The notes beneath the pieces are model-generated. The model was not told the origin of the DNA. It searched no databases and was given only the letters and a program-made list of their open reading frames with translations. The translations under genes and the position numbers were made by a program. DNA of 64,000 bases from an uncultured Acidimicrobiaceae bacterium. Its GTDB lineage: Bacteria > Actinomycetota > Acidimicrobiia > Acidimicrobiales > Palsa-688. Shown here piece after piece: positions 24,989 through 40,364 of this stretch. The first letter of the stretch is position 1, and each line of letters begins with the position of its first letter. The stretch is from assembly GCA_963749305.1 (NCBI GenBank), contig CAVVMN010000006.1, positions 87,975 through 151,974 on the forward strand. Direction: 5' to 3'.

Positions 24989-26668
24989 TCACGGGCTTTC
25001 AGTCCGGTAAATGGGGTCTGGGTCGTTCCCGCCCGGTTGGCCCGAACCCGGCACCACAAGGAACCGCGCCGACGCCCGAAACCCTTTTGCCGTTGCATCG
25101 CGTGGTCCGAGTACGTCTGGTATCAGGATCATGAGAGTCGCCTTTAGTTGGCCTCTCGAGTTCGTTCGGGTCACCACCGATCCCGTCGAAAGCGACCACG
25201 AGATCGTCACGAGGCGGTCCTTGGGGAAACCGTGCCCGGTCACCGCTACCAGCGTGCCCGGTGGGCCTAGAGGAGGATCGAGCTCCAGCGCCGGGACCCT
25301 CGGGTGGTGACCGCGCCCGGCCGTTGTCGTGGTGGTGGTCCTCTTGGTCGCTGTCGTCGGTGTGGTGCGGACAACGGTCGTACCAGTTGTTGCCGCGGCT
25401 GTTGTCGCGGTCCTCGCCGTGCCCGTTGTCACCGTCGCAGTGACAGCGGTCGTCGCCGTCGTCCCGGTGCGGACCGAAGATGTGGTTGCCGTGGTAGTCG
25501 TGGCTCTTGCGGTGGTCCGGGTTCGCGTCGTGACCGTGGCGGTCGTCGTCGTACCTGTTTTCCCGGTGCTGTGCGTGCTGGTCGTGTTAGGGCGAGTCGT
25601 CGCTGTGCTTGTCGTACCCGACGTCGCCGTCGTGGTGGGCCTGGTTGTTGCTGTGGGCCTGGTTGTTACTGTGGTCGTTACCTTCTTTGTCGTTGAAGTC
25701 GTCCCGCTGCTTGTTGTCACCTTCGCCGTTGTCGGGGTTGTTTCGGTGGTAACCGTTGTCGGCGTTGTCGCCGTGGTTGGGTGGCCGGGCACGATTATCG
25801 TGTGGCTCACGCACGGCGACGAGTTCCAATACGGGGTTTGGCCGGGAGTGTCGACCCTAAACGAAGTACCGGGGACGGTGGCGCCAGTACTAACGCCGGC
25901 TGAGTCAGTTTCACATAACTGCACGGTGTAGGTGCCTGTGCTGGTATAGACGTGCGATACATTTTGGCCCGTGCCCGACTTGCCATCACCGAACGACCAG
26001 TTGTACGAGGCGATAGTGCCGAATTGGACGGTCGATGCGGATGCGTCAAACGTTGAGGCCGTACCTACCTGTCCGGCTGCCGCAGTGAACCGGGGCACGG
26101 GAGACTGGTCAGGCGTAATCGCGATACCCTTCGGCCCGGTGGGCCAGCCGAAATGGAGGGTTCGAGACGGAGAAGCCGGCGCCACCATCGATGGCGGACC
26201 GGTTGCGTTCGAAGTGATCCCGACGACATCGAGATCGGTCTCGGTGTCGTCTTGGCCCGCCACGGCGGCAACCAGAGTATGGCCATCCGGTGACACGGCG
26301 ATCGAGTCATCGGCCCGATAGCTGGGTTCAATTCCGGCGTTGGTGGTCGCCAGCGGGACCGATTTGTACTGCAGGGGTTGAGCAACCGGGAAGCCGGTGA
26401 GGTACGGAACGGAGCGCTTGAAGCCCGCAGTACTGGCCACGTAAACGTCGAGGCCGTCCGGGCTTACCGTGATAGACCGGGCGGCGGGGACGGAGGGGTA
26501 GGGGAGCGGTACGATCACGCTCGGGAGGGTCCCCGGCGGTGGTAGTGGTCGCACCACCGTCGGCGGGTGAGGTGAGCGGAAGGGTACCGGGAAGCCAAAC
26601 GCGACGGCGTCTATCAGTATCCGCGCGGATGGGACGTTCGGGACACTCTGCGGGACCGACAGTGCCAC
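24989..26668 (-). CDS. beta-propeller-repeat / PKD / Thr-rich linker / IPT-like protein, possibly continuous with the upstream ORF
   Basis: ITVSPDGLDVYVAS and IAVSPDGHTLVAAV repeats; a PKD domain (FDASAS...YNWSFGDGKSGTGQNVSHVYTSTGTYTVQLCETDSAG); a Thr-rich stretch of about 150 aa; C-terminal LVAVTGHGFPKDRLVTISW. No signal peptide of its own. Confidence 0.7.
   Translation of the reverse strand: MALSVPQSVPNVPSARILIDAVAFGFPVPFRSPHPPTVVRPLPPPGTLPSVIVPLPYPSVPAARSITVSPDGLDVYVASTAGFKRSVPYLTGFPVAQPLQYKSVPLATTNAGIEPSYRADDSIAVSPDGHTLVAAVAGQDDTETDLDVVGITSNATGPPSMVAPASPSRTLHFGWPTGPKGIAITPDQSPVPRFTAAAGQVGTASTFDASASTVQFGTIASYNWSFGDGKSGTGQNVSHVYTSTGTYTVQLCETDSAGVSTGATVPGTSFRVDTPGQTPYWNSSPCVSHTIIVPGHPTTATTPTTVTTETTPTTAKVTTSSGTTSTTKKVTTTVTTRPTATTRPTTTATSGTTSTATTRPNTTSTHSTGKTGTTTTATVTTRTRTTARATTTTATTSSVRTGTTATTAVTATVTTGTARTATTAAATTGTTVVRTTPTTATKRTTTTTTAGRGHHPRVPALELDPPLGPPGTLVAVTGHGFPKDRLVTISWSLSTGSVVTRTNSRGQLKATLMILIPDVLGPRDATAKGFRASARFLVVPGSGQPGGNDPDPIYRTESP
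25319..25780 (-). repeat. low-complexity Thr-rich (mucin-like) coding tract
   Basis: About 150 codons dominated by T with interspersed A/R/P/G/S/V (TTATTPTTVTTETTPTT...TKRTTTTTTAG). The antisense frame reads poly-V. Confidence 0.9.
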
Positions 26669-27972
26669 GGGGGGTGATTCCGGCCCCGAATTATCGGCGA
26701 AGTTGACGGTCGTAGGCCGTGATGCAAGGGATGGACAAATCGATTATTACTGTTCGAGCAATACAGGCTAGACGCACCCAGCCGTTGTCGAACTCTGAGT
26801 GTGGTGGGCCTTGCGTCGAGCCCGTCGTGCCCGAAGCTGGGCGTAGTGGTTGGAGTAGTGGTCGGAATAGTGGTGGGAGTAGTGGTTGGTTGTGTGGAGC
26901 AGTTTGGCTGTATTGTCAGCGGGTTGGACGTCAGTGGTGTGCTCTGGCCCACCGAGTTGACGGCTGAGACCTGCAGCGTCCACGTCCCCCCACCGCAACC
27001 CACGGCCGACGTGTAGCTGGCCGGTCCCGGGATCTTTACCTGGGTCGTCACCACTCCGTTGAGACTAAGAGCCAGGGCCCAATTCGTGATGGGGGAGCCG
27101 TTGTCCTTCGCCGTCCAGTGCCATTGAATTTCGGTGAGGTTCGGAGCAAACCCCGTCACACTGAGCATGGTCGGTACCTTGCCTGCGGTCGTTGTCGTCG
27201 TCGGAGGAGCAACGGTCGACGACAGTGACGAATTGTTTGTTGCGTAAAGGTCTTTGCCGTTGGGGGTTAGGGCGAGGTCGGTGACCTCACCGGTAAAATA
27301 ACGATTGTTGGTGGGGGCCACCCACTCGCTCGTTGTCGGGGTGCCCGTCAACTTAACCTCGAAGATCGCGTTCACCGGAGACCCTGAGCTCGAGTTTTCC
27401 CCGCCCAGGTACGCTCTGGCCCCATTGGGCGAAATGGCTAGAGTACCGAAGGTGGCTTTGGCCGTGCTGGGGAGTGTGTAGACGCTGTGGGGATGGAGCG
27501 TCTGGACATCCGCTGAGTAGAGCGCATTTTCACTGGCCACGAACACCAGGTTTGGGTCACGGGGATCGGCGGCTACTCCGACCAGAGGCAGGCCCGGGAG
27601 GGCTATAGAGCCAACTTTGGCGCCAGTGGCGGGATCGAGCACGAACACCATCGGCGTATGGCTGTTACGGCCGATGGTCACGGTACGGGCGCCGTCAGAT
27701 GTGTCGGCCGCCGCCTTCAGTCCTGCTCCTGGCGGCGATGGCGTTTCAGTGCCAAGGGCGTTGCCGGAAAATGAAAATACGCTCGCCTGCTGGCTGCCAG
27801 TCACGTAAAGGTCTGGGGAGGAACCCTGAGGTATGGCGCCCGCGGGCTGTTGGTGGATAACCAGGACCGAGATGCTAAGCGATGCCAGGGTGGCCGCGAC
27901 CAGGGCTAGCCGTAGGGGGCCATGCCGGTGCCAGCGGTATGGGCTCCAGCGTTTGCGTATCAACGTGACCAA
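26614..27972 (-). CDS. secreted YVTN-type beta-propeller + fibronectin-III protein
   Basis: Signal-like LRLALVAATLASLSISVLV; repeats LAISPNGARAYLGG and LALTPNGKDLYATN; an FN3-like segment (NLTEIQWHWTAKDNGSPITNW...VSAVNSVGQS); then a TTTPTT linker. The last ~70 aa look off-frame. Confidence 0.7.
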   Translation of the reverse strand: MVTLIRKRWSPYRWHRHGPLRLALVAATLASLSISVLVIHQQPAGAIPQGSSPDLYVTGSQQASVFSFSGNALGTETPSPPGAGLKAAADTSDGARTVTIGRNSHTPMVFVLDPATGAKVGSIALPGLPLVGVAADPRDPNLVFVASENALYSADVQTLHPHSVYTLPSTAKATFGTLAISPNGARAYLGGENSSSGSPVNAIFEVKLTGTPTTSEWVAPTNNRYFTGEVTDLALTPNGKDLYATNNSSLSSTVAPPTTTTTAGKVPTMLSVTGFAPNLTEIQWHWTAKDNGSPITNWALALSLNGVVTTQVKIPGPASYTSAVGCGGGTWTLQVSAVNSVGQSTPLTSNPLTIQPNCSTQPTTTPTTIPTTTPTTTPSFGHDGLDARPTTLRVRQRLGASSLYCSNSNNRFVHPLHHGLRPSTSPIIRGRNHPPWHCRSRRVSRTSHPRGY

Positions 27973-27991: not shown

Positions 27992-29329
27992 TTACGAGGC
28001 AGATTTCATGTTCCCTGCGAAGTAGAGCGACGGCGTGCAGGTACCGGAGCAGTCTTTTACCACGAACTGGAGTTTGCTGTTGGGGCGGAAATACACCGGC
28101 GTGATCCAGTGGTAGTCGAGGTCCCTGAAGTTCGCCAGCGCCCATGACATGAGCACTTTGCCGCTGTCCTGGAGGAAGACGGTGCCGCTGGCGCCGGCGG
28201 AGTTCTCGAGGAGGATGTCGGTGACATCCAGGCTTTTGTCCTTGGGGATGAAAAAGGCGGCAGTGGTGTTGTTACCGCTCGCCGTCAGGCTGTAGTTGAT
28301 AGGCGTGCCCAAGGCCGCCGCGCTGTTCGCCGCATTGGAGCTGTTCGCGCTGGTAGTCGCCGTCGTGGAACCGGTCACCGAACCATGGCCGGGGCTGGTA
28401 GTGGCCGAAGTGGTGGGGGTTGTGCCCGATCCGGGACTGGAAGTCGCAGCCAGAGAGGAGACGGTGCTGGCTACGCTATTTACGGCGCTGACCACCGGTT
28501 TGATTTGCTTCGCTACTGCGTTCTGCGTCGCTGCCGTGATCTGCGGTTTGACGAGCGTGAACCACAACAGGGCCAAAATGGCAACCAATGCCAGCAGACC
28601 GGCTATGGCCTTCCCGATCCAGCTGGGGAGAAGCGGGTCCCTGAGTATGGCGCCATCGGCATCAAGCTCCGGTGGGTGCGTCCCGGCGGGCAGTTCTGTG
28701 CCGGGCTCGGCGCCGTTTGTGTGGGGTTGCCGAAGGGCAACTTGGTAGGGCTCTGTCGTCGACGGGCCGCGCCAATAGCTGGCTTTCGGGCGCACAGTGA
28801 CCTTCGCGAACGCCACCGAACCGGCGGCGACGTCCATCAGCGGGGGACTGAACGAGTAGTCGAACGCCGAGTCGCTGTCGCTACCCGAGAGCTCAGCCCG
28901 GTAGCTGATATTTGAACGATTGTCGACAGCTACCTGCGACCGTCCCCGCAACCACACACGGGTCGCATGCGGTGTGACCTCCGCCATAACCTCGCTGAAC
29001 TCGGCGACATTGAGGGTCCCTTCTTCGACCACGCTTCCTTCGGGGTCCTCGCGGGACTGCACCCGGATCCCGAACGGTACTGCTCCCGAGGCAGTGTCAG
29101 TCGCCCGCGGAGGAGAAAAGGTAACGCGAATTGTCTCTTCAGCTTGCGGGAACAGCGACACCGTGGGGGGGTCAAATGTAGCCCAACCACCGGCACCTCC
29201 GAGCACTTCGAAGCTGAACTGGTCAACAACCGTCCCGGTATTGCGAACCGTCAGCTCCAGGCTGACGCTGGCGCCGGGTTCGACGTCGGCTATCGGTACC
29301 GGGAGTCGAACTATTGCGCTCATATCCAT
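27992..29329 (-). CDS. bitopic membrane protein: two N-terminal Ig-like (NEW3/CARDB-like) domains, TM, Ser/Thr linker, small C-terminal beta domain
   Basis: Start ATG at 29329 with a GGAAGG SD. VEPGASVSLELTVRNTGTVVDQFSFEVLG...ETIRVTFSPP is an Ig-like module and is repeated once. One TM helix (IAGLLALVAILALLWFTLV). No signal peptide, so the N-terminus is predicted cytoplasmic. Confidence 0.6.
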   Translation of the reverse strand: MDMSAIVRLPVPIADVEPGASVSLELTVRNTGTVVDQFSFEVLGGAGGWATFDPPTVSLFPQAEETIRVTFSPPRATDTASGAVPFGIRVQSREDPEGSVVEEGTLNVAEFSEVMAEVTPHATRVWLRGRSQVAVDNRSNISYRAELSGSDSDSAFDYSFSPPLMDVAAGSVAFAKVTVRPKASYWRGPSTTEPYQVALRQPHTNGAEPGTELPAGTHPPELDADGAILRDPLLPSWIGKAIAGLLALVAILALLWFTLVKPQITAATQNAVAKQIKPVVSAVNSVASTVSSLAATSSPGSGTTPTTSATTSPGHGSVTGSTTATTSANSSNAANSAAALGTPINYSLTASGNNTTAAFFIPKDKSLDVTDILLENSAGASGTVFLQDSGKVLMSWALANFRDLDYHWITPVYFRPNSKLQFVVKDCSGTCTPSLYFAGNMKSAS

Positions 29330-29364
29330 CCTTCCAGGTCTCTTGTCGAGTGCATTCGGGGCAT

Positions 29365-29754
29365 TTAGCCGATCAGAACAGTCGCGCCGCTGGCGGCTAG
29401 CGTCCCCGGCAGACCGCCGCAGGCCGTGCACTGGGAGGCCTGCGTCGCCGCTCCTTGGCCGCCAATGAGGACGTCGACGCTCCCCACCACGACCTGGCCG
29501 ATCTGCATCGCCGGCACCATGTACGGGTCGGCCGGGTAAAGCCCGACGTGTGGCGGGGTGTTGAGACCCGAGGATCCGGCGACGGCGGCGGGCTTGCCAC
29601 CGATAAGGACGGTCTCAACCGTCCCGATGGTGATTGGGGCTGAGAAAGGGAGCGGAGGCGACGGCTGGGGCGCGCCCGTGGCCGGGTTGGGGATGAGGTG
29701 GATGGCGCAGGTGGCGGTGATCTGGTCACCCAGGACAGCCGCGGGAGTACCCAT
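29365..29754 (-). CDS. PAAR-domain spike-tip protein (Afp10-like)
   Basis: 129 aa, Gly/Pro/Ala/Val-rich, with repeated (P)AAV.G motifs (GTPAAVLGDQ, GGKPAAVAGSS, LIGGQGAATQ) typical of PAAR cones. The start lies 3 nt after the upstream gene's stop. Confidence 0.7.
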   Translation of the reverse strand: MGTPAAVLGDQITATCAIHLIPNPATGAPQPSPPLPFSAPITIGTVETVLIGGKPAAVAGSSGLNTPPHVGLYPADPYMVPAMQIGQVVVGSVDVLIGGQGAATQASQCTACGGLPGTLAASGATVLIG

Positions 29755-29756
29755 TC

Positions 29757-30968
29757 TCAGTTTGTCTTTTCGTAAAGGACGACGCCTGTCTCAGCGCACG
29801 TCCCGGCGGCTGCGCCCTGGTCTGTCGTCACCAGCCGAAGCGATACCTCGCTCGGATGCACCACTTTGATATTTTCATGCTGGAAGCTCGGCGGGTTGTT
29901 CAAATTGATTACGGTGCCAGCGCCCGCCGGCGTCGAGCTCAGGACTACTTGTTGCGGATAGGGAGAAGCTTGACCGGCTTGCGGCGCGTGGGTGGCCGGT
30001 TTTAGGGGGGTGAACGCGATCTTCGAGATCGTCCCGGTGAAACTGGAGGCAATGGTCATGGTCAGGAGCTGGGAGCTCCCGCCCCCGGGCCTGGTATACC
30101 AGTACACGGTGTCATTGCCTTGTAATTGAGCTGCTCCGCAGTCGCCCGGGTTGGCGACTTTGACGCTCGCCAGGGGCACCTTGGCGTACGTCGGCACGAA
30201 CACTCCCTCTGCTTTGGTGTACCACTTGGAGACCGTGTGCCTAAGCGATGGGACTACGGCAAAAACGACGACCACCAGCAGGATCGCAATGACGAGCTTC
30301 CCACGAAGCCGGTGGGAGCGGGCCGAGGGCGGGGCCGGCATCCTGACCGGCGCGACCGGACGCGCTGCCGCGTAGTGAGGTGACTGCGGCCTGGCCGGAG
30401 AGGGTGAAGCTGGCGGCCGAGGCGCTGTCGCCTTCGCCGAGGAGCCCCCACCGCCGGCCTTGGCCGCAGGCCCAGCACCGGAGGTGCTAGTGCTGGGCTC
30501 GCCACGGGCTGTTTCTCCTGCTTTCGGCGCCTGCTGGTCTGAGGGGTGTCGTCGGAAGATCCGTTTCCACCAAGGCAGGCGGACGGCGGCCACCTGCTCG
30601 GCCAAGACGCTTCCGCACTTCCGGCAAAACCTGCGCCCAGGCTCATTCGGCTGGCCACACTGGCCACAAAATATGTCACCCGGCTCGGCGCGGCGCGCTT
30701 GGGGGCGCGGCGGCGGGGGTTTCGGCCGTTCGATCGGTGGCGCGGGCTGGACCGCCACCGGTCCCGACGGAGGTGGAGGACGGGGTAGTGACGTCTGGTC
30801 GGAAGGAGGGGGAGAAGATATCGGGGCGGGGCCGTCGTCAACTGCGACGCGCTCGCCCTCCCACTCGAGAAAGGCGCCGCAACCACCGCAGAAGTCCTCG
30901 TCTACCGACGCATGAACACCGCACCGCTTGCAAATGATCTCTTCCACGCAAGGTCCTTGACTTGTCAC
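29757..30968 (-). CDS. double zinc-ribbon bitopic membrane protein with extracytoplasmic beta-sandwich domain
   Basis: Two CxxC...CxxC ribbons (CKRCG...CGGCG; CGQCG...CRKCG), a Pro-rich linker, one TM helix (LVIAILLVVVVFAVV) and a roughly 160-aa C-terminal discoidin-like domain. Confidence 0.6.
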   Translation of the reverse strand: MTSQGPCVEEIICKRCGVHASVDEDFCGGCGAFLEWEGERVAVDDGPAPISSPPPSDQTSLPRPPPPSGPVAVQPAPPIERPKPPPPRPQARRAEPGDIFCGQCGQPNEPGRRFCRKCGSVLAEQVAAVRLPWWKRIFRRHPSDQQAPKAGETARGEPSTSTSGAGPAAKAGGGGSSAKATAPRPPASPSPARPQSPHYAAARPVAPVRMPAPPSARSHRLRGKLVIAILLVVVVFAVVPSLRHTVSKWYTKAEGVFVPTYAKVPLASVKVANPGDCGAAQLQGNDTVYWYTRPGGGSSQLLTMTIASSFTGTISKIAFTPLKPATHAPQAGQASPYPQQVVLSSTPAGAGTVINLNNPPSFQHENIKVVHPSEVSLRLVTTDQGAAAGTCAETGVVLYEKTN

Positions 30969-31313: not shown

Positions 31314-34273
31314 GTGAAGTCAATGCACGAACCAATCGTTTCGGCGCGGACTCGCGTACCGCCACTAACCGGGCAGCCGCGCACCCGGGTTAACGCGCTC
31401 ATCGAAGCCAGCTGGCGTGTGCCGCTGGCTGTCGTTGTCGCGCCGGCAGGCTCGGGGAAGACGACGACCCTGGCCTTATTCGCTCAGGCGCAACGCGAAG
31501 CGGGCCGAGCCGTGGCCTGGTACCAAGCCGGTATTTCGGAAGCAGACCCGGCGCGTCTCCTTCGTTATCTGGAAGGAGCCGTTCGCCAAGTTGTCCCCAC
31601 CGTCCCGCCCGGTTGGGACACGGTTGATAGGGCCGCGGCTGCGTTCGAAGCGGTACCGTTGCCTCCCCTGATCATCGTTGTCGACGACGCTCACACGCTT
31701 TGGTCGACGGCAGCCGAAGCCACCTTGGAGCGTCTTGTGGCCTACTTGCCGGCTGAAGCCCATTTGGTCCTGGCCGGACGGCACCCTCCGTCGTTCGATT
31801 TACCCAGATGGCGCTTGGCCCGTCAGGTTCTCGAAATAGGCCCTGACGAACTCCGCTTCCGCTCCTGGGAAGTCGAAGAGCTCTTCGCTCAGCACTATGG
31901 AGTGCGATTGGTGCCCGAGGAAGTGGCGGAGCTGGCTCGCCGTACCGGTGGTTGGGCGGCGGGATTGTCACTTTTCCACCTGGCCACGGAAAACCGGTCG
32001 GTGTCAGAGCGCCGGAGGGTGTTGGCTTCGATGTCAAGCCGTCTACTGGATACCCGGGATTACCTGACACACAACGTCCTGGCCACCCTCGAAGCCGATC
32101 AGCAGGAGTTCCTGATCGGGACCTGCGTCCTGGGGCGACTGTCAGGAGCGTGGTGTGACCAGCTCATGAACACCTCGGGGAGTGCCCGCCGGCTCGAGGA
32201 CTTGGCGCGGCGGCACCTCTTCCTGGTCAGTCACGACGGAGGTATTACGTACCAGGAACACGAGGTGCTCCGGTCTTTCCTGGAAGAACTGCTCCTCGAC
32301 CAAGTTGGAGAGGAGGGGATCCGGGCCCTTTACGCCACGGCCGGGCCGATACTCGAAATGGGCGGAGCATACTCAGAAGCCCTCCGTTGCTACTGCCGGG
32401 CACAGGACTGGGATGCCGTAGACCGGCTGTTGGGATTTTCCGGTGACCGTGTTGTCGACCCCCTGGGCCCTGGGGCGACGCCCTTCCGCCCGCCGTTGCC
32501 GACCACGACGCCTGGTATTTGTTGGCGATCGCTCGCCGCCAGGTGCGTTCGGGGCATTGGGCTACGGCACAAGAGAGCTACCGTCGCGCCGAGGATGTGG
32601 CAACGGGCGAGCTCGTCCGCCGGACGTGCGAGAGGGAGCGTATTCAGCTCGTCGGCTGGATGGACCCGGGTACAACCGTTCCTCACGACTGGACGGGCGT
32701 CCTGCGCAGCGCATTGGCCCGCAACCCTCTCGTTGTCGTAGAGGATCTCGACATTCGTTCGGTGGGGAACCAGCTGGCGAGCGGCCTGGGTGCTATGGCC
32801 GCGGGCTGCATGTCACGCGCTCACGCCATATTCGCGGCCGAAGCAGCCGATTCGCCGGCCGCCTCAGTCCTCAGCCGATGGGTGGACGCTTTCCGCCTGT
32901 TCACGGCGCGTTTGAGCGGGTTGCCGTACAGCGAAGCGGCATTTCACTCCACCCTCAACGATATTGACCCCAATCTGCCGCCCTGGCTGGCCCGCCTGTT
33001 GCACGCGTTGGCCGGTCGCCCGAGCGGTCTCCTTGACCAGCTAGAGGCAAGCCGAGGCGAGGCGCTGGCGACCGAGAACGCTTGGGCTGACCTCGTGTTC
33101 GGGCTGATAGACGGCTGTTCTCTGCTGGCCGCCGGGCGGGGCCTAGAGGCGGTCGCCCGCCTTGATGCGGCCGTCGCAACGGCTAGTGCATTGGGCGTGC
33201 AGGTCGTGGCCGCGTGGGCGGCCGCCGGCGCCAGCCTCGGGTTACTGTCCTCGGACCCAACCGGTGCCGCCCGTCGCGCCGTCAATAGCGACCAGTTGGC
33301 TCGTTCGGTGGGGTGCCCCGGCGCGTCCGCCCTTTCTCTTCTCGTCGAAGGGGCTGCCCGGGGCCACCCAAAATGGCGCGACGCCGCCGATCCGCTCGAG
33401 ATCGAAGGAGTGGTCCCGATGGCGGGCGTCGTGGCTCAGTGCCTCGGGACGTTGAGCGAGCGGGTGGGGGACGGGCAGGGTGGCGCACTCGAGAACACCG
33501 CGGGCCGGCTCGACGATGTAATCACGTCCAGGTCAGGAGCGCTCCCAGCGCGGGAGCCCGACGTTCGTTGCCTGGGCACCTTTTCCCTCATTGTTGCCGG
33601 CCGGGCGGTCGACAGCGCTCTGGCCAGGCCCCGGGTCCGGGCGCTGCTGCACTATTTGGCCATGCAGGCCGGCGCCTATGTACACCGGGACACGCTTTGT
33701 ACCGCGCTCTGGCCCAACGACGAGGCCCGAGCCGCCACGCATGGCCTGCAAGTTGCGGTATCTGCTTTGCGGCAACTCCTGGAGGCCCAGGCAGGCAAAG
33801 GTGCTGGGTCTATCATCGCCCGGAAGGGAGAGTCATACGGCCTCGAAGTTGATGTTGCCGTCCACGACCTGGCTCAGTTCGAGGTCAGCCTGGCACAGGC
33901 GCGGGTCGCCCGGAACAGCGGTAATCACGAGCAAGCGGTGGCGGATCTGCGACCTGCCTTGGCTCTTTACCGCGGCGACCTCCTCGAGGACGCGGGTACC
34001 GCCGAGTGGGTGCTTGGGCCACGCGAGCGGTACCGGCTGATGGCCTCCGAGGCCAGCCAGCTCTTAGCTGCGTGCCTACTTGACCTGGGGGAGCCGACAG
34101 AGGCAGCTGCAGTGGCCGGCTGGGGTCTAACCATTGACCGTTACTGCGATGCGCTCTGGAAGCTGATGATCGCCGCTCACGACCAAGGATCCAATCAGGC
34201 CGCCAGCGCCAGGACGCGGAACGACTATCGCCGTGTGCTGGCCGAGCTGGGCGTCGGTCAGGACGTCTCCTGA
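31314..34273 (+). CDS. large regulator: N-terminal STAND/MalT-like P-loop ATPase, helical repeats, C-terminal SARP module (winged helix + BTAD); apparent frameshift
   Basis: Walker A VVVAPAGSGKTT and Walker B LIIVVDDAH. C-terminal RCLGTFSLIVAGRAV...RVRALLHYLAM... and BTAD-like ALALYRGDLLED...RYCDALWKLMIAAH. ORFs 31314-32741 and 32519-34273 join if one base is added near 32465-32470. Confidence 0.75.
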
Positions 34274-35067
34274 CCTTCGTCGTCACCGGGGCTAGCCGGC
34301 GGTGCTGGTGGCTCGTCAGGACCAACCTGGCTCGGCTGGGCCGGCGGGCCGACGGGCCCTTCCGGGCCGTCGTATTGCTCCGTGGGGGCCAGAGGGGGAG
34401 ATGGGGCACGAGTGGGCGGTGGCGGCTCCTGGCTCGCACCTCGGCCAGGAAAGGCAGTTGGGGGCGGTGGCGACCACTTAACCTCGGGACGCCTAACCAC
34501 ATCGATGACGTGGGGCACGTGCGCCGGCTTGACGGATGTGACGATTCCTTCGAGGCGGTTGAGGTCGAGATCGTCCTCAGTCCCGACGGTCAGCTGGACC
34601 CTTAGCTCAGCGACCGAGCTCCCCGGCAGGTTGCCGTCGGGGGTCGTGGACCAGGCCACTCCACCGGAGTCATGCACCTCGGGCACGACGCCGGTAAAAA
34701 GGCGGATGTGCTCGATTATCCCGCGCACTGTCCCGTGCCATCGATAGAGATCGCCGGCCTCTATTACAAGAGTGCGCCGTTGTTCTTCGGGCCAGTTCTG
34801 GTCGAGGCTGAGGCCGACCCATCCAGCCAGCCAATCGAGGTAGTCCGCCGGAGTAAGCCGAGGGTCGAAGTAAGCCTCCATGCAGTCCAGGGTCACGGTC
34901 GCAGGGGTCAGCACGCAGTCGAGGCCGGCGCAAAACCCGCTAACGAACTCGGGCCCGCCCCGTTCCTCCTTTCGGTCCACGGGCTCCAAGAAGACCCCGG
35001 GCAGCAGAGATTCGAGGGTGCGCGGAGGGCCGGTCCCAGGCATAAGACCACGGCCTGAAAACGTCAC
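34258..35067 (-). CDS. CIS baseplate protein, P2 gpI-like (Afp12-like)
   Basis: ...LLPGVFLE...FVSGFCAGLDCVLTPATVTLDCMEAYFDPRLTPADYLDWLAGWVGLSLDQNWPEEQRR...YRWHGTVRG resembles phage tail protein I family proteins. The Pro-rich tail and GTG start overlap the upstream stop. Confidence 0.75.
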   Translation of the reverse strand: MTFSGRGLMPGTGPPRTLESLLPGVFLEPVDRKEERGGPEFVSGFCAGLDCVLTPATVTLDCMEAYFDPRLTPADYLDWLAGWVGLSLDQNWPEEQRRTLVIEAGDLYRWHGTVRGIIEHIRLFTGVVPEVHDSGGVAWSTTPDGNLPGSSVAELRVQLTVGTEDDLDLNRLEGIVTSVKPAHVPHVIDVVRRPEVKWSPPPPTAFPGRGASQEPPPPTRAPSPPLAPTEQYDGPEGPVGPPAQPSQVGPDEPPAPPASPGDDEGQETS

Positions 35068-37030
35068 TAGCGGTCGACCCTGACCAGGTGCTCGTAGCTG
35101 AAAACGACCGAATTAGCGGCCAGCTCGAGGCGCTGGGTGGCTTCCCCGCGTTGGCCTGTGATCGGGTCGGTGGCAAAAAGCCTGACGTCCTCCACGTACT
35201 CCACTCCTTCGACGCGCTGAAGGACGGCATAGACCTCGCCCACGTTTACCGGCCGGCCAAAGGGCCAGCCGTCGCCATCCGGGCCACCGACGATCGGGTC
35301 GAAATATCGGTAAAGCGCCCGGCGGGAGCTTTCTTCGACGGTCGTCAGGCGGGCGTTACGTCGGCCCTGAATCCGGGCTACGACGGTGATGCCCTGGTAA
35401 TGCGGGGGTTCCACGATGATGCGGGCCCCACCACCCGGCGCTCGTCGAGGTAATTGGCAATCCGCTCGAGTAGCTGTCCATCCAGTATGAGCTGTTCGAA
35501 CCGCAGACGCCCGTTCTCATCACCTGCCACTGCCGGGATCACCAGGATGCGCACGCCATCGGCCCCGGCCGCGGGCTCGGAACCACCGCCCGGCGCAGCG
35601 GAGACGCAGCGGACTCGAGCCACGTCAGGAGCAGCCTCCCTGGTTAGCTGCTCATAGTCTTCCGCGGTAACCGCCCGGTTCCGCGTCCGCATTTGCAATG
35701 GGCCCCGTACCTTCGCCTCCTCGACCGTCTCGCCGTCCACCCCACCAGAAGCCGCCCGCCGGTTTTTAACACTGGCTATATAAGAGATGGAGGACCTCAC
35801 CACGCTGATCTGCCCCGCTGCCACATTGCCCCGGCTGCCACCGCCTGTGCGGTACGAGCGGAGCCGCACCGTTGCGGCTTTAGGGGGCACCGCCCCGTAC
35901 TGCTGGACGGAGCCGTCTTGGCACCTGACCGCCGGCCCGAACACAACCTCTCCCGTGCACCGGTCGAACACGAAGTGCCGGTCCGACGAGGCACTGTCGG
36001 CAAAACCCTCAACTTCGGTCCATTCTTCCCAACCCTCGTCGTCGCTCACGTCAATCAGCGAACTTCCTTCACCTGCCAGCACCGGCTTTTCTTTGACTGG
36101 CAACCTCTGACCCGGTGCCCCGTTAGACACACCAAGGACCTCCCCGTCGATGGTCTTGGCGTGAGAGGCATCTATGGTCCCCCCTTTTGTGAACGCCCCG
36201 AGGCCGTCGATTTGGGGCGACGACGAGTAGGAAGGTTGGCCCTCCACTGCTTGGGTCACGACGGCCCGCAACCATCCAGCCCGTTCCTGGTCAACAACGC
36301 TGGCGACATGGGTCGGCGGCACGTGGACAATTACGTCGCCCGGCCGGTTGAGGCCACCTGTCCCGTCGCTGTCGACTTCACAACGCGCCCAATCGGTGCC
36401 GTCGTAGGCCTCCCACCGCAGGGGCGGGTTAAGAGGGTCGACTCCGACGCCCTCGATCCGGCACTGGAACCGCATGACGACCGCGCACCGGGGGACGGGG
36501 TCCGACAGGCCGACATAGAGCGCATCACCGGGCTGGGGCACGGAGGCGAAGCAAGGCTGGCCCGGGCCGCCCTGAAGAGTATCGCTGTGGTCTCGAAAAT
36601 TGCCCCCGGAGGGCTGGCTTCGTAGTGCGGTAAGCGAGCACGGGACAATATCGAGATCTGCGTCGACCGTGAACACCAACGCTTCGTCGACATCGGTCCG
36701 GACCGTCGCCACCTCTGTCCCGGCCGGGATGCGCACAACGTCGGCCTGCGGTGCCGACAACCAGAACGTCATCGGGGCGCGAGCGGCCGAGGGGGCGAAC
36801 AGTCGCACGCCCAACAGGTCGAGGAACTTGACATAATTGCGGTCCGGGACGCGGTTAAGTCGGTAGAGAAGCTGGTCGACCATGAACGCAAACGTCTCGA
36901 TGAGTGTCACGCCCGGGTCGGACACATTGTGGTCGGTCCAATCCGGGCAGCGCTGCTGGACGAGGCGTTTCGCATCGTCCACGAGGTCCTGGAAGCGCCT
37001 GTCGTCAAGGTTGGGCACCGGCAGAGGCAT
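35067..37030 (-). CDS. CIS baseplate J-like protein (Afp11/gp6-like), apparent frameshift
   Basis: MPLPVPNLDDRRFQDLVDDAKRLVQQRCPDWTDHNVSDPGVTLIETFAFMVDQLLYRLNRVPDRNY is the typical N-terminus of putative baseplate assembly proteins. ORFs 35378-37189 and 35067-35414 fuse if one C is added to the run at 35426-35429. Confidence 0.85.
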
Positions 37031-37437
37031 CAGGTCTCCCGCTCTTCCGGGATCACATAAAACGGGAATACCAGGTTGCGGCGGTCGTTTGTGTCCCGTT
37101 CGGAATAGGTGATCGACACGTCCATGCGTCCTCTTTCGGCGTCGCGGTAAGTGACGTCGACCGCCGTCACGTTGATGCGAGGCTCCCACCTCTCCAACGC
37201 GGCACGGACATCGTAAGCGACCCGGCCCGCGGTCGTGGCGTCCATCGGCGAGAAAACCTCATCCCAGATACCGCAGCCAAACTCGGGCCGCATCGGGCGG
37301 TCCCCTTTTGGCGTGCGCAGGATGAGCTCGATGCTTTCGGCCAGTTCACGTTCCCGCGATACGAGCGCGATCCCGCCCGTCTTGTCCGGCCGGACGGGGA
37401 ACGCCCACCCTCTACCGATGAAGTCGTCGCTCATCAC
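37030..37437 (-). CDS. GPW/gp25-family baseplate wedge protein (Afp9-like)
   Basis: 135 aa. FIGRGWAFPV...ESIELILRTPKGDRPMRPEFGCGIWDEVF is canonical gp25. The TGATG overlap couples it to baseplate J. Confidence 0.9.
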   Translation of the reverse strand: MMSDDFIGRGWAFPVRPDKTGGIALVSRERELAESIELILRTPKGDRPMRPEFGCGIWDEVFSPMDATTAGRVAYDVRAALERWEPRINVTAVDVTYRDAERGRMDVSITYSERDTNDRRNLVFPFYVIPEERET

Positions 37438-37452
37438 CGACCTCTTTTCCAG

Positions 37453-39219
37453 TTAGTTGAGCTTGATGGGAGTACCGGTAACCGTGACGTCGGCGGTGCC
37501 GCTGATAGACACGCTGCCTTGGGCATTTATCGACACGCTCTGGCCTTTCAAGTTGAGTTCGTTCTGAGCTTCGACGCTGATCCCGGCCGATGACTTGATA
37601 GATATGTCTTGAGACGCCTCGATTTCGACCTTGCCGGTGCTGCTGACTTTAACCGTCGTCGTCCCTGCGTTTAGTGAGATGCGCAGGTTGTGGTCACCCG
37701 TCATCAACGCGGCTCCGTTTGAGGAGGAGTCGTCGAAAAATATAAGTGCATGACCATTTTTTGATATAAGGCCTCGTCGCCTCACGGCGCCTGAGGAACT
37801 GTCGATCAGGTTGCTTCCTTGCATGGGCTTGTCGACACCGTTGTGGAGTAGCCCCAGGACGTATGGTCGCCGCCAGTCACCTTGCTCGAACGCCACCAGG
37901 ACTTCGTCGTTTACCTCAGGCAAAAATGAGGCACCTCTATTGTTGCCTGCGCCGACCTGGACCATGCGGGCCCAGTCCGATGTAAAACTGTCGGAAAGCC
38001 ACGGGAAGCTAATCTTTACCCGGCCCAGTTGGTTCGGGTCGTTCACGTCAGTGACCAGAGCGGGGACCACACCAGCTATCGGTGGGGCCGACGCCCCCGG
38101 GCCGGCCCCCGGGCTGCCCGCGGACGCCAGGCCCAAGAAGGGACCGCTGGTTGCGACCGCTGACCGTAAAGGCAGTGGTGTACCCGTCCGAGGCGTCGTA
38201 CCGATGGCGCACCGAGGTCAGGGTGTACTTCCCGTCGAAAGGGTCACCGACCAGGCTCAGGCTTATGGCCACACCGGCCCGGAGTTTCGAGTTGCCTCGA
38301 GCCACCCCTTCCAGTTCCGCGAAGGCGCTGCTGATGTGGTCCGCTAAAGCCTTGGCCGCCGTGTCTACCTCGGTCTGGTTGGAGTACGGTACACCGACGC
38401 CGTACAGGGTGGCATTGCCAAATATGCTGGCCAGGTTGGAGGGGCTGGTCCCGACGGATGCCGAACTGGTGCCGGCCGGCGCCGTGCTGACGACCTTTTG
38501 TTTCTGCGACGGGTCCCAACCCCGCACCTCGACCTGGCCGACCTGGTCGGCCGATGTGACAATGCTTCGCAAACGCAGGATGTGAGCGCCCATCGTCAGG
38601 GCCAATGGGTCAGTCGGTATTGGTCAGGCTCCCGGCCGCGGGGCCGGCGCTGGACGAGGCTGGCTGCCGGAAATGGAGTTTGCCGTCTTCCACCAGCACT
38701 TCGTAGCCAATGTCCGCCGCCAGTTTCTTCAGGAACATCCAATCGTTGCTGTTGTTCTGCGAAACATAAGGGAACACGGGGCTGGTCGAGTCGATCTGGC
38801 CCGGCTGCAAATTGGCCCGCTGCGCCACTTTCTGAGCGATGTCGGCCGCGGTCATGTTCTGGTACGTCTCTGTGTAACGGCCGCGGAACAGCAAGTGAGA
38901 CTCGTCATAACCGCGCAATACTGTGAACGTGCCGGCGCCGTCGTGTTCGACCTCGAGGGCGGTGACGTCCCCGGTAAGGAGGAGGTCGCCGGACGGGGCT
39001 GCATTGGAAAAGGCGCTCACCTTTATCTTGGAGCCGATTTTTGCCCCCGTTTTCGACAAGACGGCCCGGTCGGGGTCGCGAAAAGATAACACGAACAGGT
39101 CCGGTTGGTGCAGGTTGCTGTCCACAATCGCGGACGTAAGGAGGTTGTCGACATCTGAGGGGACCTCTGTCCCGTCGACCTCGTAGCTTGAACTTCCCCG
39201 CTGACTCCTGGACGGCCAT
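37453..39219 (-). CDS. VgrG-like spike (late-control gpD + gp5 OB-fold + beta-helix; Afp8-like), three apparent frameshifts
   Basis: Pieces at 38610-39219, 38048-38605 and 37453-38136. gpD-like (...FVLSFRDPD...VEVRGWDPSQKQKVV), OB fold (GVVPALVTDVNDPNQLGRVKISFPWL...NRGASFLPEVNDEVLVAFEQGDWRRPYVLG) and a C-terminal beta-helix repeat. Confidence 0.8.
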
Positions 39220-39237
39220 ATCGTTGATCGCCGGCCT

Positions 39238-39925
39238 TCAGATGGCCTGGTTGAACGCATCGTCCATATCGGGCACCAGGAGCCGGGTACCGACGACCAG
39301 TTTGAACGGGTCATCGATCCCGTTGGCTTCCGCCAGGGGTCGCCACCACGCCGCGTTCCCGTACTCCTTGTAGGCCACGCTGGGCAGCGAGTCACCTTCG
39401 ATCAGGAGGTGCGAGCGCATACTGTTCGGGCTGCCCGAAGTGGGGTTTTGGGCGAACGAGTCGGGGACGGCCTCCTCCATCGTCACCGTGCACGTGGCCC
39501 GCAACGGCGTGCCGTCGTTGCCGAACATGGTCAACTTGACGGCCACGCTCTTTACGATCGCCGTAAGCTGCATGTTGTTGCCCCAGGCGAAAACCACCCA
39601 GGGCGGGCTGGGTTTCTTGGCCTGTATCGAGTTGTCCATCGGTTGGCAGCACGAGTAGAGCGTCTCGATGTCGGCGCTGATGTCTCTGTCCTGCTTCGTA
39701 CCCGTCGAGGAACAACTCCACGCTCAGGGACATGGGGCTTGGCCCCTGGAACTCGGGTTTGGACGCCTTGGTTGCTCCTTTGGCCGGTTTGCGCTGCCAC
39801 TGCGCGGCTTTGTTGAAGCTGAGTTCTTTCGGGTTGTAGCTAAAAGTGACCCGGTCGAGCTCCGGCCCGCCCGACGAGTTCGGGGGAATGAGCGAAATGT
39901 AGGCCTTTGTCGGGGTCTCAGACAT
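39238..39925 (-). CDS. CIS tube-initiator / baseplate hub protein with C-terminal LysM (Afp7-like), apparent frameshift
   Basis: N-terminal tube-like fold (VTFSYNPKELSFNKAAQW...) and C-terminal LysM (HLLIEGDSLPSVAYKEYGNAAWWRPLAEANGIDDPFKLVVGTRLLVP). The frames join near 39688. Confidence 0.75.
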
Positions 39926-40354
39926 TGGACAGGAACCCGTGATGGGCGATCTCGAGTGTTTCTATGGCCACCTTTGGCCCCTCAGCACTGAACTGCGGAC
40001 CGGTCCACTTGACGGGGAAGACGCTTTGTAGTGCCCATTTGCAGACCTCGGTACCGTCGATGGTCAGTGCTCGGATGACCGCGGTGCAGCGTTGCATGCC
40101 CGGGCCGCTATTCGAAATCCAGCTGGCCACCTTGGCGCTGTCGGAGTTGAGGGGTCGGGTGAACTTGACGTTCGTGTACTTCATGGGGCCGGGCAATTGA
40201 TGGACGAAACCGTTATTGCCCCCTTCTTGACGTGACTCGACCGTTATCTCGCACCCAGCCCATCACAGGTCGTGAACAGGCCGAGGTCGTAGCTCGAGTT
40301 GTCTATGGTTACCGCAAAGCACACACTGACGGCCGGGTCATCGACTATGGACAT
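39918..40354 (-). CDS. second CIS tube protein (T4 gp19-like; Afp5-like), apparent frameshift
   Basis: ATG at 40354 with an AAGGAG SD. MSIVDDPAVSVCFAVTIDNSSYDLGLFTTCDGLG / CEITVESRQEGGNNGFVHQLPGPMKYTNVKFTRPL... The frames join near 40258. Confidence 0.75.
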
Positions 40355-40364
40355 TCGGCTCCTT

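Follow-up and report, generated by a model that had tools for sequence, protein, structure and literature searches.

A CisA-family protein, a PAAR tip protein and a Sco4256-type protein encoded beside a Streptomyces-type contractile injection system of an Acidimicrobiaceae bacterium

CisA (SCO4242) of Streptomyces is a membrane-bound protein, shown by experiment to be oriented N-in/C-out, and is needed in situ for sheath contraction of the contractile injection system (CIS) (PMC12237407). Its cytoplasmic part is predicted to bind Cis11 (PMC12237407). A second group of proteins, the Sco4256 family, is composed of a PapD-like N-terminal domain, a transmembrane (TM) helix and a variable C-terminal domain; in Streptomyces it has been reported from ~90% of the class IId clusters, and beyond this genus from such loci in other Actinobacteria, Ilumatobacter among them, and in Cyanobacteria and Chloroflexi (PMC10020575). 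Casu et al. described Sco4256-4258 as CIS-associated effectors whose triple deletion empties the tube lumen and phenocopies CIS loss, and proteins of this type were reported to be toxic on expression, particle-loaded and needed for cell death (PMC10066040). Sco4256 has also been found to co-purify with the particles and has been described as a membrane O-glycoprotein with its glycan at Ser317, C-terminal to the TM helix (~219-255). As for the PAAR tip protein, S. coelicolor has none and Cis10 was reported only in S. venezuelae (PMC10066040). In this study, we analyzed a stretch of 64,000 nucleotides (nt), referred to here as the window, from an uncultured Acidimicrobiaceae bacterium (assembly GCA_963749305.1, contig CAVVMN010000006.1, positions 87,975 to 151,974). 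In it, a PAAR gene lies between the genes of two membrane proteins close to a CIS cluster of the Streptomyces type (class IId).

We consider it likely that this region is an accessory operon of a Streptomyces-type cytoplasmic CIS, which encodes a CisA-type adaptor, a PAAR tip, a Sco4256-type protein and a PKD protein. Three co-oriented open reading frames (ORFs) on the minus strand make up the trio, and their coordinates were confirmed as first given in the preliminary description:

29757-30968, minus strand: cisA-like gene (gene A), recognized by Pfam Zn_Ribbon_1/DZR matches, BLASTP, hhalign, its TM segment, and an AlphaFold2 (AF2) model with Foldseek
29365-29754, minus strand: PAAR spike-tip gene (Cis10 equivalent), 129 amino acids (aa), recognized by Pfam PAAR_motif, BLASTP and its junction with gene A
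27992-29329, minus strand: Sco4256-family ('hydrolytic protein') gene (gene C), recognized by AF2, Foldseek, tblastn and BLASTP

NCBIfam gave no informative name for any of the three proteins.

The gene A product is composed of a first Zn-ribbon, a Pro-rich linker, a second Zn-ribbon, the sequence RLPWWKRIF, a disordered linker, a TM segment (aa 224-242) and an ectodomain of predicted discoidin fold (aa ~260-403). The Zn-ribbons are matched by Zn_Ribbon_1/DZR of Pfam, residues 224-242 are the one hydrophobic segment, and the C-terminal domain was modeled by AF2 as a beta-sandwich with a predicted local distance difference test score (pLDDT) of ~90. Pfam, hydrophobicity and AF2 therefore agree on the double zinc-ribbon protein with one TM helix and a C-terminal beta-sandwich that had been read from the DNA beforehand. 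The true start of gene A is likely the GTG at 30947 ('VEEIICK...'), as judged from the family alignment. For the comparison with CisA, residues 1-310 of CisA (SCO4242) were taken from the model file deposited with the CisA paper (PMC12237407). CisA is laid out as a Zn-ribbon, a long Pro/Ala-rich linker, a second Zn-ribbon, the sequence APWWRRLF and a TM helix. BLASTP aligned the two proteins collinearly, with an E-value of 3e-9 for the second Zn-ribbon together with the PWW motif and of 6e-5 for the first Zn-ribbon. When an alignment of 19 gene A relatives was compared with that of 16 Streptomyces CisA proteins by hhalign, the two families matched with a probability of 99.3% (E 8e-21) over 237 columns, from the second Zn-ribbon to the C-terminus. 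The N-terminal part taken by itself gave E 7e-18 over 43 columns (the second Zn-ribbon and the PWW motif), and this is the best-conserved part of gene A. In addition, the S. lividans CisA ORF matched the hidden Markov model (HMM) of the gene A family with E 3e-11, and the motif PWW(R/K)R(L/I)F is present in CisA, in L086 and L087 (loci are denoted here by L numbers) and in the gene A family.

A protein encoded on a Kitasatospora plasmid provides a further connection. It is matched N-terminally by the gene A HMM (E 1e-30) and C-terminally by NADase_discoid (E 9e-18); its gene directly adjoins Cis12 on one side and a gene C homolog on the other. On these profile matches, the Kitasatospora protein links gene A and CisA. 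Taken together, the sequence comparisons identify gene A as a distant homolog of CisA, that is, a CisA-family protein. The preliminary description had stated that a bitopic membrane protein is needed for firing of the Streptomyces CIS; this protein is CisA (SCO4242; PMC12237407). Gene A resembles CisA in being CIS-linked, and in having two Zn-ribbons, the PWW(R/K)R(L/I)F motif, a single TM segment, a Lys plus Arg (K+R) bias that agrees with N-in, and a predicted C-terminal beta-sandwich of ~150 aa of the discoidin (F5/8 type C) fold class. The N-in/C-out orientation predicted for gene A is well supported by analogy, because it is homologous to CisA, whose topology has been mapped experimentally, and because its K+R content is 3.9 on the N-terminal side of the TM segment and 2.95 on the C-terminal side.

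The CisA paper terms the cytoplasmic N-terminus of CisA 'largely unstructured' and never mentions zinc (PMC12237407). Residues 1-310 of CisA, however, contain two Cys4 Zn-ribbons and PWWRRLF, and these are conserved as far as Acidimicrobiia. Since the Zn-ribbons and the PWW motif are the only parts with significant similarity between gene A and CisA, the Zn-ribbon/PWW module is, at the sequence level, the obvious candidate for the baseplate-binding element.

The product of gene C was modeled by AF2 with a mean pLDDT of 85.7. It consists of two PapD/ASH-like Ig sandwiches (1-230), a helix (236-286) that contains the only TM segment (242-260), a disordered Ser/Thr linker (284-338) and a small beta-sandwich (340-445) with the motif FRDLDYHW. 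There is no N-terminal hydrophobic segment or signal peptide. AF2 and hydrophobicity bear out the earlier outline of this protein as two Ig-like domains without a signal peptide, one TM helix, a Ser/Thr linker and a small domain. Foldseek matched the N-terminal half to CEP192 SPD-2 (7ptb), ciliary ASH-domain proteins, RbmA, the chaperones CsuC/FimC, 2qsv and protein 4.2, through the entries 7ptb, 4kkq/4kkr, 6fq0_C, 9fxb_C, 2qsv and 7sqc_T0. The HHpred results published for domain 1 of Sco4256 list the same entries or proteins (CEP192 SPD-2, RbmA, CsuC, FimC, 2QSV, FAP47 and protein 4.2).

At the sequence level, gene C aligned with the 'hydrolytic protein' of a plasmid of Streptomyces sp. NBC_01324 (L088) with E 1e-50 and 29% identity over 431 aa by BLASTP. 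The alignment spans the full length including the C-terminal domain, where the Streptomyces protein has FRNQDYHW, and this domain is common to the Streptomyces and Kitasatospora plasmid members. The NBC_01324 cluster is canonical; it encodes a CisA-type zinc-ribbon protein, Cis12, Cis11, gp25, PAAR and VgrG, and further along the sheath, an ATPase, DUF4255 and LuxR, and the 'hydrolytic protein' at its end is the gene C match. A tblastn search of gene C against plasmids gave matches in 20 Streptomyces records and, outside this genus, in Kitasatospora, Streptantibioticus (pSCATT) and Deinococcus; in Streptomyces, the annotations of the matched genes read 'hydrolytic protein', 'RICIN domain-containing protein' or 'hydrolase'. 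The gene C family is large, with 7,528 representatives (50% identity) at E<=1e-3, 1,355 at E<=1e-30 and 363 matches among the GTDB species genomes. From these alignments, gene C is a full-length homolog of the Sco4256-4258-type 'hydrolytic protein' family. It shares with Sco4256-4258 the tandem PapD-like Ig module, the central TM helix, the variable C-terminal domain and an almost constant position adjoining class IId CIS genes, and with the Streptomyces member the FR(D/N)xDYHW domain. It differs from Sco4256-4258 in having neither a ricin nor a pore-forming-lectin C-terminal domain and in its place: it lies in an operon with the cisA-like gene and PAAR, and has a PKD surface-protein gene on its 3' side, rather than lying near the sheath/ATPase end. 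The first Ig-like domain of gene C (~12-140) also matches four Deinococcus plasmid genes (H24-H27, E 4e-7 to 4e-4); two of these bear a protein kinase annotation, in one case that of an FHA-domain Ser/Thr kinase, and the other two are listed as hypothetical proteins.

On Pfam PAAR_motif, the PAAR protein reaches 27.7 bits, which is borderline with respect to the cut-off of 27. Its family alignment shows repeated PAAV/GAAT motifs, and BLASTP aligned it with the PAAR protein of NBC_01324 with E 1e-7 and 48% identity over 73 aa; a sequence search against solved structures found nothing useful, with no close solved relative. The NBC_01324 protein is encoded between VgrG and gp25, the Cis10 position. 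The window protein thus has the motifs of Cis10/Afp10-type and Streptomyces IId PAAR proteins, but it has 129 aa against the 105 aa of the NBC_01324 protein owing to an extra N-terminal segment, and its gene is not part of the baseplate operon but is flanked by two membrane-protein genes. In the window, the spike and gp25 genes are separated by 15 nt and have no PAAR gene between them. It had been proposed that the window contains only one PAAR gene, and this held in a search of all its stop-to-stop ORFs with a PAAR/DUF4280 profile built from 17 related sequences, which found no other ORF at E<=10. What is novel about this PAAR is its position, not the kind of protein.

The junctions of the trio are tight. 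The TGA stop codon of gene A is followed by GA and then by the ATG of PAAR, that is, by a gap of 2 nt, which suggests from the sequence that the two genes are co-translated. Between the PAAR stop codon (TAA) and the ATG of gene C there are 35 nt; with the second ATG as the start, which is preceded by GGAAGG as a ribosome-binding site, the gap would be 41 nt. Of the gaps of 3 nt and 35 nt given before, the latter was correct and the former is 2 nt. A consensus scan detected no promoter-like site in the region, and the intervals between the trio genes contain no terminator-like site; the single minus-strand terminator-like site falls within gene A, and overall the sites did not exceed the number expected by chance.

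To examine the genomic context, we annotated the surroundings of gene C relatives in 79 species-representative loci (flanks of <=10 kb) by phmmer with the CIS proteins of the window. CIS core genes were found within 10 kb in 33 of the 34 gene C loci having at least 8 kb on both sides, and in 41 of 46 having at least 8 kb upstream. These counts describe linkage within the 10-kb flanks, and genome-wide co-occurrence is beyond their reach. The exceptions were L067 and the paralog loci L004, L005 and L012. The order gene A-PAAR-gene C, usually followed by the PKD gene, was found in L001, L002, L006-L011, L016 and L036, in which the gene C identity ranges from 45 to 93%, and every informative trio-bearing locus adjoins CIS genes. 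The trio either follows the baseplate genes and the regulator as in the window (L001, L006-L008 and L016) or adjoins Cis15/Pvc16N (L010, L011 and L036). In three other Acidimicrobiia loci (L003, L013 and L015), a DUF4280 (PAAR-like) gene is found with the genes of a Zn-ribbon/NADase-type protein, gene C and a PKD protein. The trio is thus a CIS-linked, membrane-associated module, as had been proposed, and an absence of association with CIS genes was not what we found in the flanks covered. A generic surface-glycan operon unrelated to the CIS was considered as well, and was rejected because of the linkage in 33 of 34 loci.

Chloroflexota CIS loci have an arrangement of their own: a gene C homolog is followed by the gene of a ~700-aa secreted beta-propeller protein and then by that of a one-TM protein with two Zn-ribbons. 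In several loci this last protein has a NADase/discoidin-type ectodomain, an architecture like that of CisA without the PWW motif. The arrangement was seen in L039 (9809-14533), L032, L041, L043, L046, L049, L051, L054, L061, L075, L077, L081 and others; in L039 the two-Zn-ribbon gene starts 5 nt after the preceding stop codon. According to a 2026 paper, Roseiflexus has no close cisA homologues (PMC12998442).

The neighborhood of PAAR and gene C raises another explanation, in which the Sco4256-like protein is a cargo mounted on the spike through PAAR, as in the PAAR-effector pairs of the type VI secretion system (T6SS), with the PapD-like domains binding PAAR or the spike and the membrane not being where the protein normally resides. 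In some ten Acidimicrobiia loci, PAAR immediately precedes gene C, and DUF4280 genes are found near gene C paralogs even where no structural CIS genes were seen within 10 kb (L004 and L005). Sco4256 co-purifies with the particles, and the triple deletion empties the tube lumen (PMC10066040, PMC10020575). In the canonical Streptomyces clusters, however, PAAR and the Sco4256-type gene are at opposite ends, S. coelicolor has no PAAR at all (PMC10066040), no PAAR was detected next to gene C in the Chloroflexota loci, and the glycosylation of Sco4256 at Ser317 implies membrane insertion. We regard a PAAR-mounted cargo as unlikely. In L004 and L005 themselves, gene C paralogs and nearby DUF4280 genes were seen, but sheath, tube and baseplate genes of a CIS were not called within 10 kb; the products of L004 further include a DUF4157/eCIS_core protein and one of the Zn-ribbon/NADase type. 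Both may be orphan cargo islands.

The preliminary description had taken the trio for a different and undescribed solution to the firing of the CIS, that is, a novel membrane anchor or trigger distinct from the Streptomyces CisA in evolution and mechanism. It is true that the ectodomain of gene A fails the domain models of CisA, that the position of PAAR is unusual, and that the three-gene order is not described in the CIS literature consulted (PMC12237407, PMC10066040, PMC10020575). This proposal was not upheld, since all three proteins have homologs in the Streptomyces IId systems (gene A, hhalign E 8e-21; PAAR, E 1e-7; gene C, E 1e-50), and the conserved cytoplasmic module of CisA is the very part that is best conserved in gene A (E 7e-18, 43 columns). 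A separate origin and mechanism is therefore very improbable. What is new is modest: the lineage, the regrouping of PAAR beside membrane-protein genes in one operon, and the divergent ectodomain of the CisA-type protein.

The features around the trio are as follows:

24989-27972, minus strand: PKD surface-protein gene (Pfam PKD; tblastn; synteny)
31314-34273, plus strand: STAND/SARP-type regulator, divergent (Pfam AAA_16, Trans_reg_C and BTAD)
34258-39395, minus strand: baseplate and spike block (Pfam; tblastn against L006), which contains the next four genes
34258-35067, minus strand: Cis12 (Pfam Tail_P2_I)
35070-37189, minus strand: Cis11 (Pfam Baseplate_J), with one frame change (tblastn against L006)
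37030-37437, minus strand: gp25/Cis9 (Pfam GPW_gp25)
37453-39395, minus strand: fused Cis7/Cis8 VgrG-like spike (Pfam Phage_GPD and Phage_base_V), with two frame changes
39392-55001, minus strand: remaining CIS cluster (Pfam), with one frame change in the sheath
44501-46040, minus strand: sheath gene, with one frame change relative to L006/L011

The minus-strand cluster from ~34258 to 55001 is a Streptomyces-type (class IId) CIS. Its part from 39392 to 55001 encodes the tube proteins, a 1017-aa protein, the split sheath, a 930-aa protein, eCIS_core/Cis16, Cis15, Pvc16_N and a LuxR regulator; Cis15 is an AAA+ ATPase with a winged-helix domain. The GC content of the window is ~63-67%, and the closest protein matches of its products are from metagenome-assembled genomes (MAGs) of Acidimicrobiales/Acidimicrobiaceae. 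The end of Cis12 at 34258 and the start of gene A at 30968 are 3,289 nt apart, so that the distance of ~3.3 kb between the baseplate genes and the PAAR operon, as first described, is accurate. This gap is occupied by the SARP/AfsR-like STAND regulator, which separates Cis12 and the baseplate genes from the trio in L001, L006-L008 and L016 as well. The regulator is read as two overlapping ORFs in the window and as a single ORF of 987 aa in L006. A STAND/SARP-type regulator was also seen near the isolated gene C paralog and DUF4280 gene of L005. Gene A thus differs from cisA, which directly follows Cis12, in lying 3.3 kb from it beyond a divergent regulator; it also differs in its apparent translational coupling to PAAR, in an extra disordered stretch of ~85 aa between the PWW motif and the TM segment, and in its host, which belongs to Acidimicrobiia and not to Streptomyces. 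On the other side of the trio, the PKD gene encodes a protein with a signal-anchor and a PKD domain, together with a beta-propeller-like region and a Thr/Pro linker. Owing to a frame change from -2 to -1 (tblastn), this gene falls into two ORFs in the window, 26614-27972 and 24989-26668, and its homolog is directly 3' of gene C in 21 related loci.

Two further proteins of the cluster drew our attention. The 930-aa ORF at 46268-49060 (minus strand), between the sheath gene and eCIS_core/Cis16, has a homolog in the CIS locus L035, and its C-terminus has weak cytidine/APOBEC-like deaminase matches (E ~3e-4), which are below the cut-offs. It is a candidate toxin cargo. The 1017-aa protein at 40365-43418 (minus strand), between the tube genes, has no Pfam match; Streptomyces clusters encode a hypothetical protein of ~1020 aa at the equivalent position. 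Tape-measure-related effectors (Sle1/Tme) have been described at that position between the tube genes (PMC13277306).

Several points weigh against the reading of this region as an accessory operon with a CisA-type adaptor and a Sco4256-type protein. The first concerns the ectodomain of gene A. Full-length CisA carries PF13240, PF12773 and PF25302/NF047619, the last being a 'NADase-type glycan-binding' discoidin domain, whereas the C-terminal domain of gene A matches neither PF25302 nor NF047619 and has no detectable sequence similarity to that domain. The hhalign comparison restricted to the C-terminal domains of gene A and CisA was not significant (E 0.027, probability 1.8%), so homology of the ectodomains at the sequence level is not claimed. 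The top Foldseek matches of the modeled domain were an F5/8-type-C domain (3nng), CBM32 (2v72) and the lectin domain of lectinolysin. In the AF2 model, then, the ectodomain agrees with that of CisA in predicted fold class only, not in sequence.

The second point concerns gene C. Published accounts of Sco4256-type proteins have not settled on one role and treat them either as tube-lumen cargo or effectors or as O-glycosylated membrane proteins. Moreover, the link from gene C to Sco4256 runs through the plasmid-borne Streptomyces homologs and published descriptions and not through the SCO4256 sequence; in the S. lividans CisA locus, the 10-kb flank ends at the tube genes, short of SCO4256. The charges around the TM segment also point the other way, since the mean K+R content of the gene C family is 1.3 on the N-terminal side and 2.8 on the C-terminal side, and the positive-inside rule does not favor N-in. 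N-in/C-out is nevertheless more likely for gene C, because it has no signal peptide, its N-terminal module of 230 aa is folded, and the glycan of Sco4256 at Ser317 is C-terminal to the TM helix. For the same reasons, the N-out orientation suggested by the charge bias is less likely. The proposal that both membrane proteins are N-in/C-out is accordingly supported for gene A by CisA homology and charge bias, and for gene C in part, by an indirect argument and against its charge bias.

The third point concerns the integrity of the locus. Compared by tblastn with L006 and L011, which are 87-96% identical, the window has frame changes in the spike (two), Cis11, the sheath, the regulator and the PKD gene; a plot of GC content at third codon positions by frame (GC3) was too noisy at 63% GC to define the reading frames. 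These changes may reflect real decay or pseudogenization, and the locus could then be a non-functional CIS remnant, in which the trio is kept for another role in the cell envelope or has not yet been degraded. However, none of the trio genes is interrupted or shortened in comparison with its homologs, and synteny with intact loci is perfect. The frame changes look like long-read assembly indels, because L016, a locus from a nanopore-type MAG, is fragmented in an equal pattern. A decaying CIS has, in our view, only a slim chance of being the right explanation.

If the region is an accessory operon of a cytoplasmic CIS, the following mechanism may be considered. Homology, architecture and CIS linkage were computed in this study; we infer the topology of gene C, all physical contacts and the part played in firing and cell death. 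As in S. coelicolor, the CIS particles would be assembled unattached in the cytoplasm, and PAAR would cap their VgrG-like spike. The CisA-like protein would use its cytoplasmic Zn-ribbon/PWW part to recruit or trigger the baseplate at the membrane, where binding to Cis11 is the published prediction, and its discoidin-fold ectodomain may sense a cell-envelope glycan or a stress signal. The Sco4256-like protein would be a membrane-associated factor needed for the lethal outcome, and the fourth product of the operon would be a secreted PKD/beta-propeller protein. The T6SS has a membrane complex, TssJLM, which fixes the contractile system to the membrane. In Anabaena, the CIS is anchored to the thylakoid (PMC10020575). 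The likeness to these systems lies in the general idea of a TM-containing protein that links the baseplate to the membrane. No homology to them was found or expected: their anchors are extensions of the baseplate or fibre, or TssJLM, and not bitopic proteins with Zn-ribbon and discoidin domains.

It is conceivable that the order of the cisA-like, PAAR and sco4256-like genes reflects a physical complex at the membrane, in which the PapD-like domains of gene C, the CisA-like tail, or both dock the PAAR-capped tip of the spike, but we think this improbable. If it were true, the Sco4256 family would be a membrane-resident receptor or trigger, or a cargo mounted on the spike, and not an effector of the tube lumen, and the Streptomyces 'effectors' would have to be re-interpreted.

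In conclusion, gene A, PAAR and gene C probably belong to an accessory operon of a Streptomyces-type CIS in Acidimicrobiia. Taken alone, this is a refinement at the level of annotation and not a new mechanism. The adjacency of PAAR gives a comparative clue to a possible contact of Sco4256-type proteins with the spike. What is conserved in CisA is the cytoplasmic Zn-ribbon/PWW module, with an interchangeable ectodomain, and this points to the module as the element that binds the baseplate. Both the model of CisA-dependent firing and the Sco4256-type factors may thereby be extended from Streptomyces to Acidimicrobiia.

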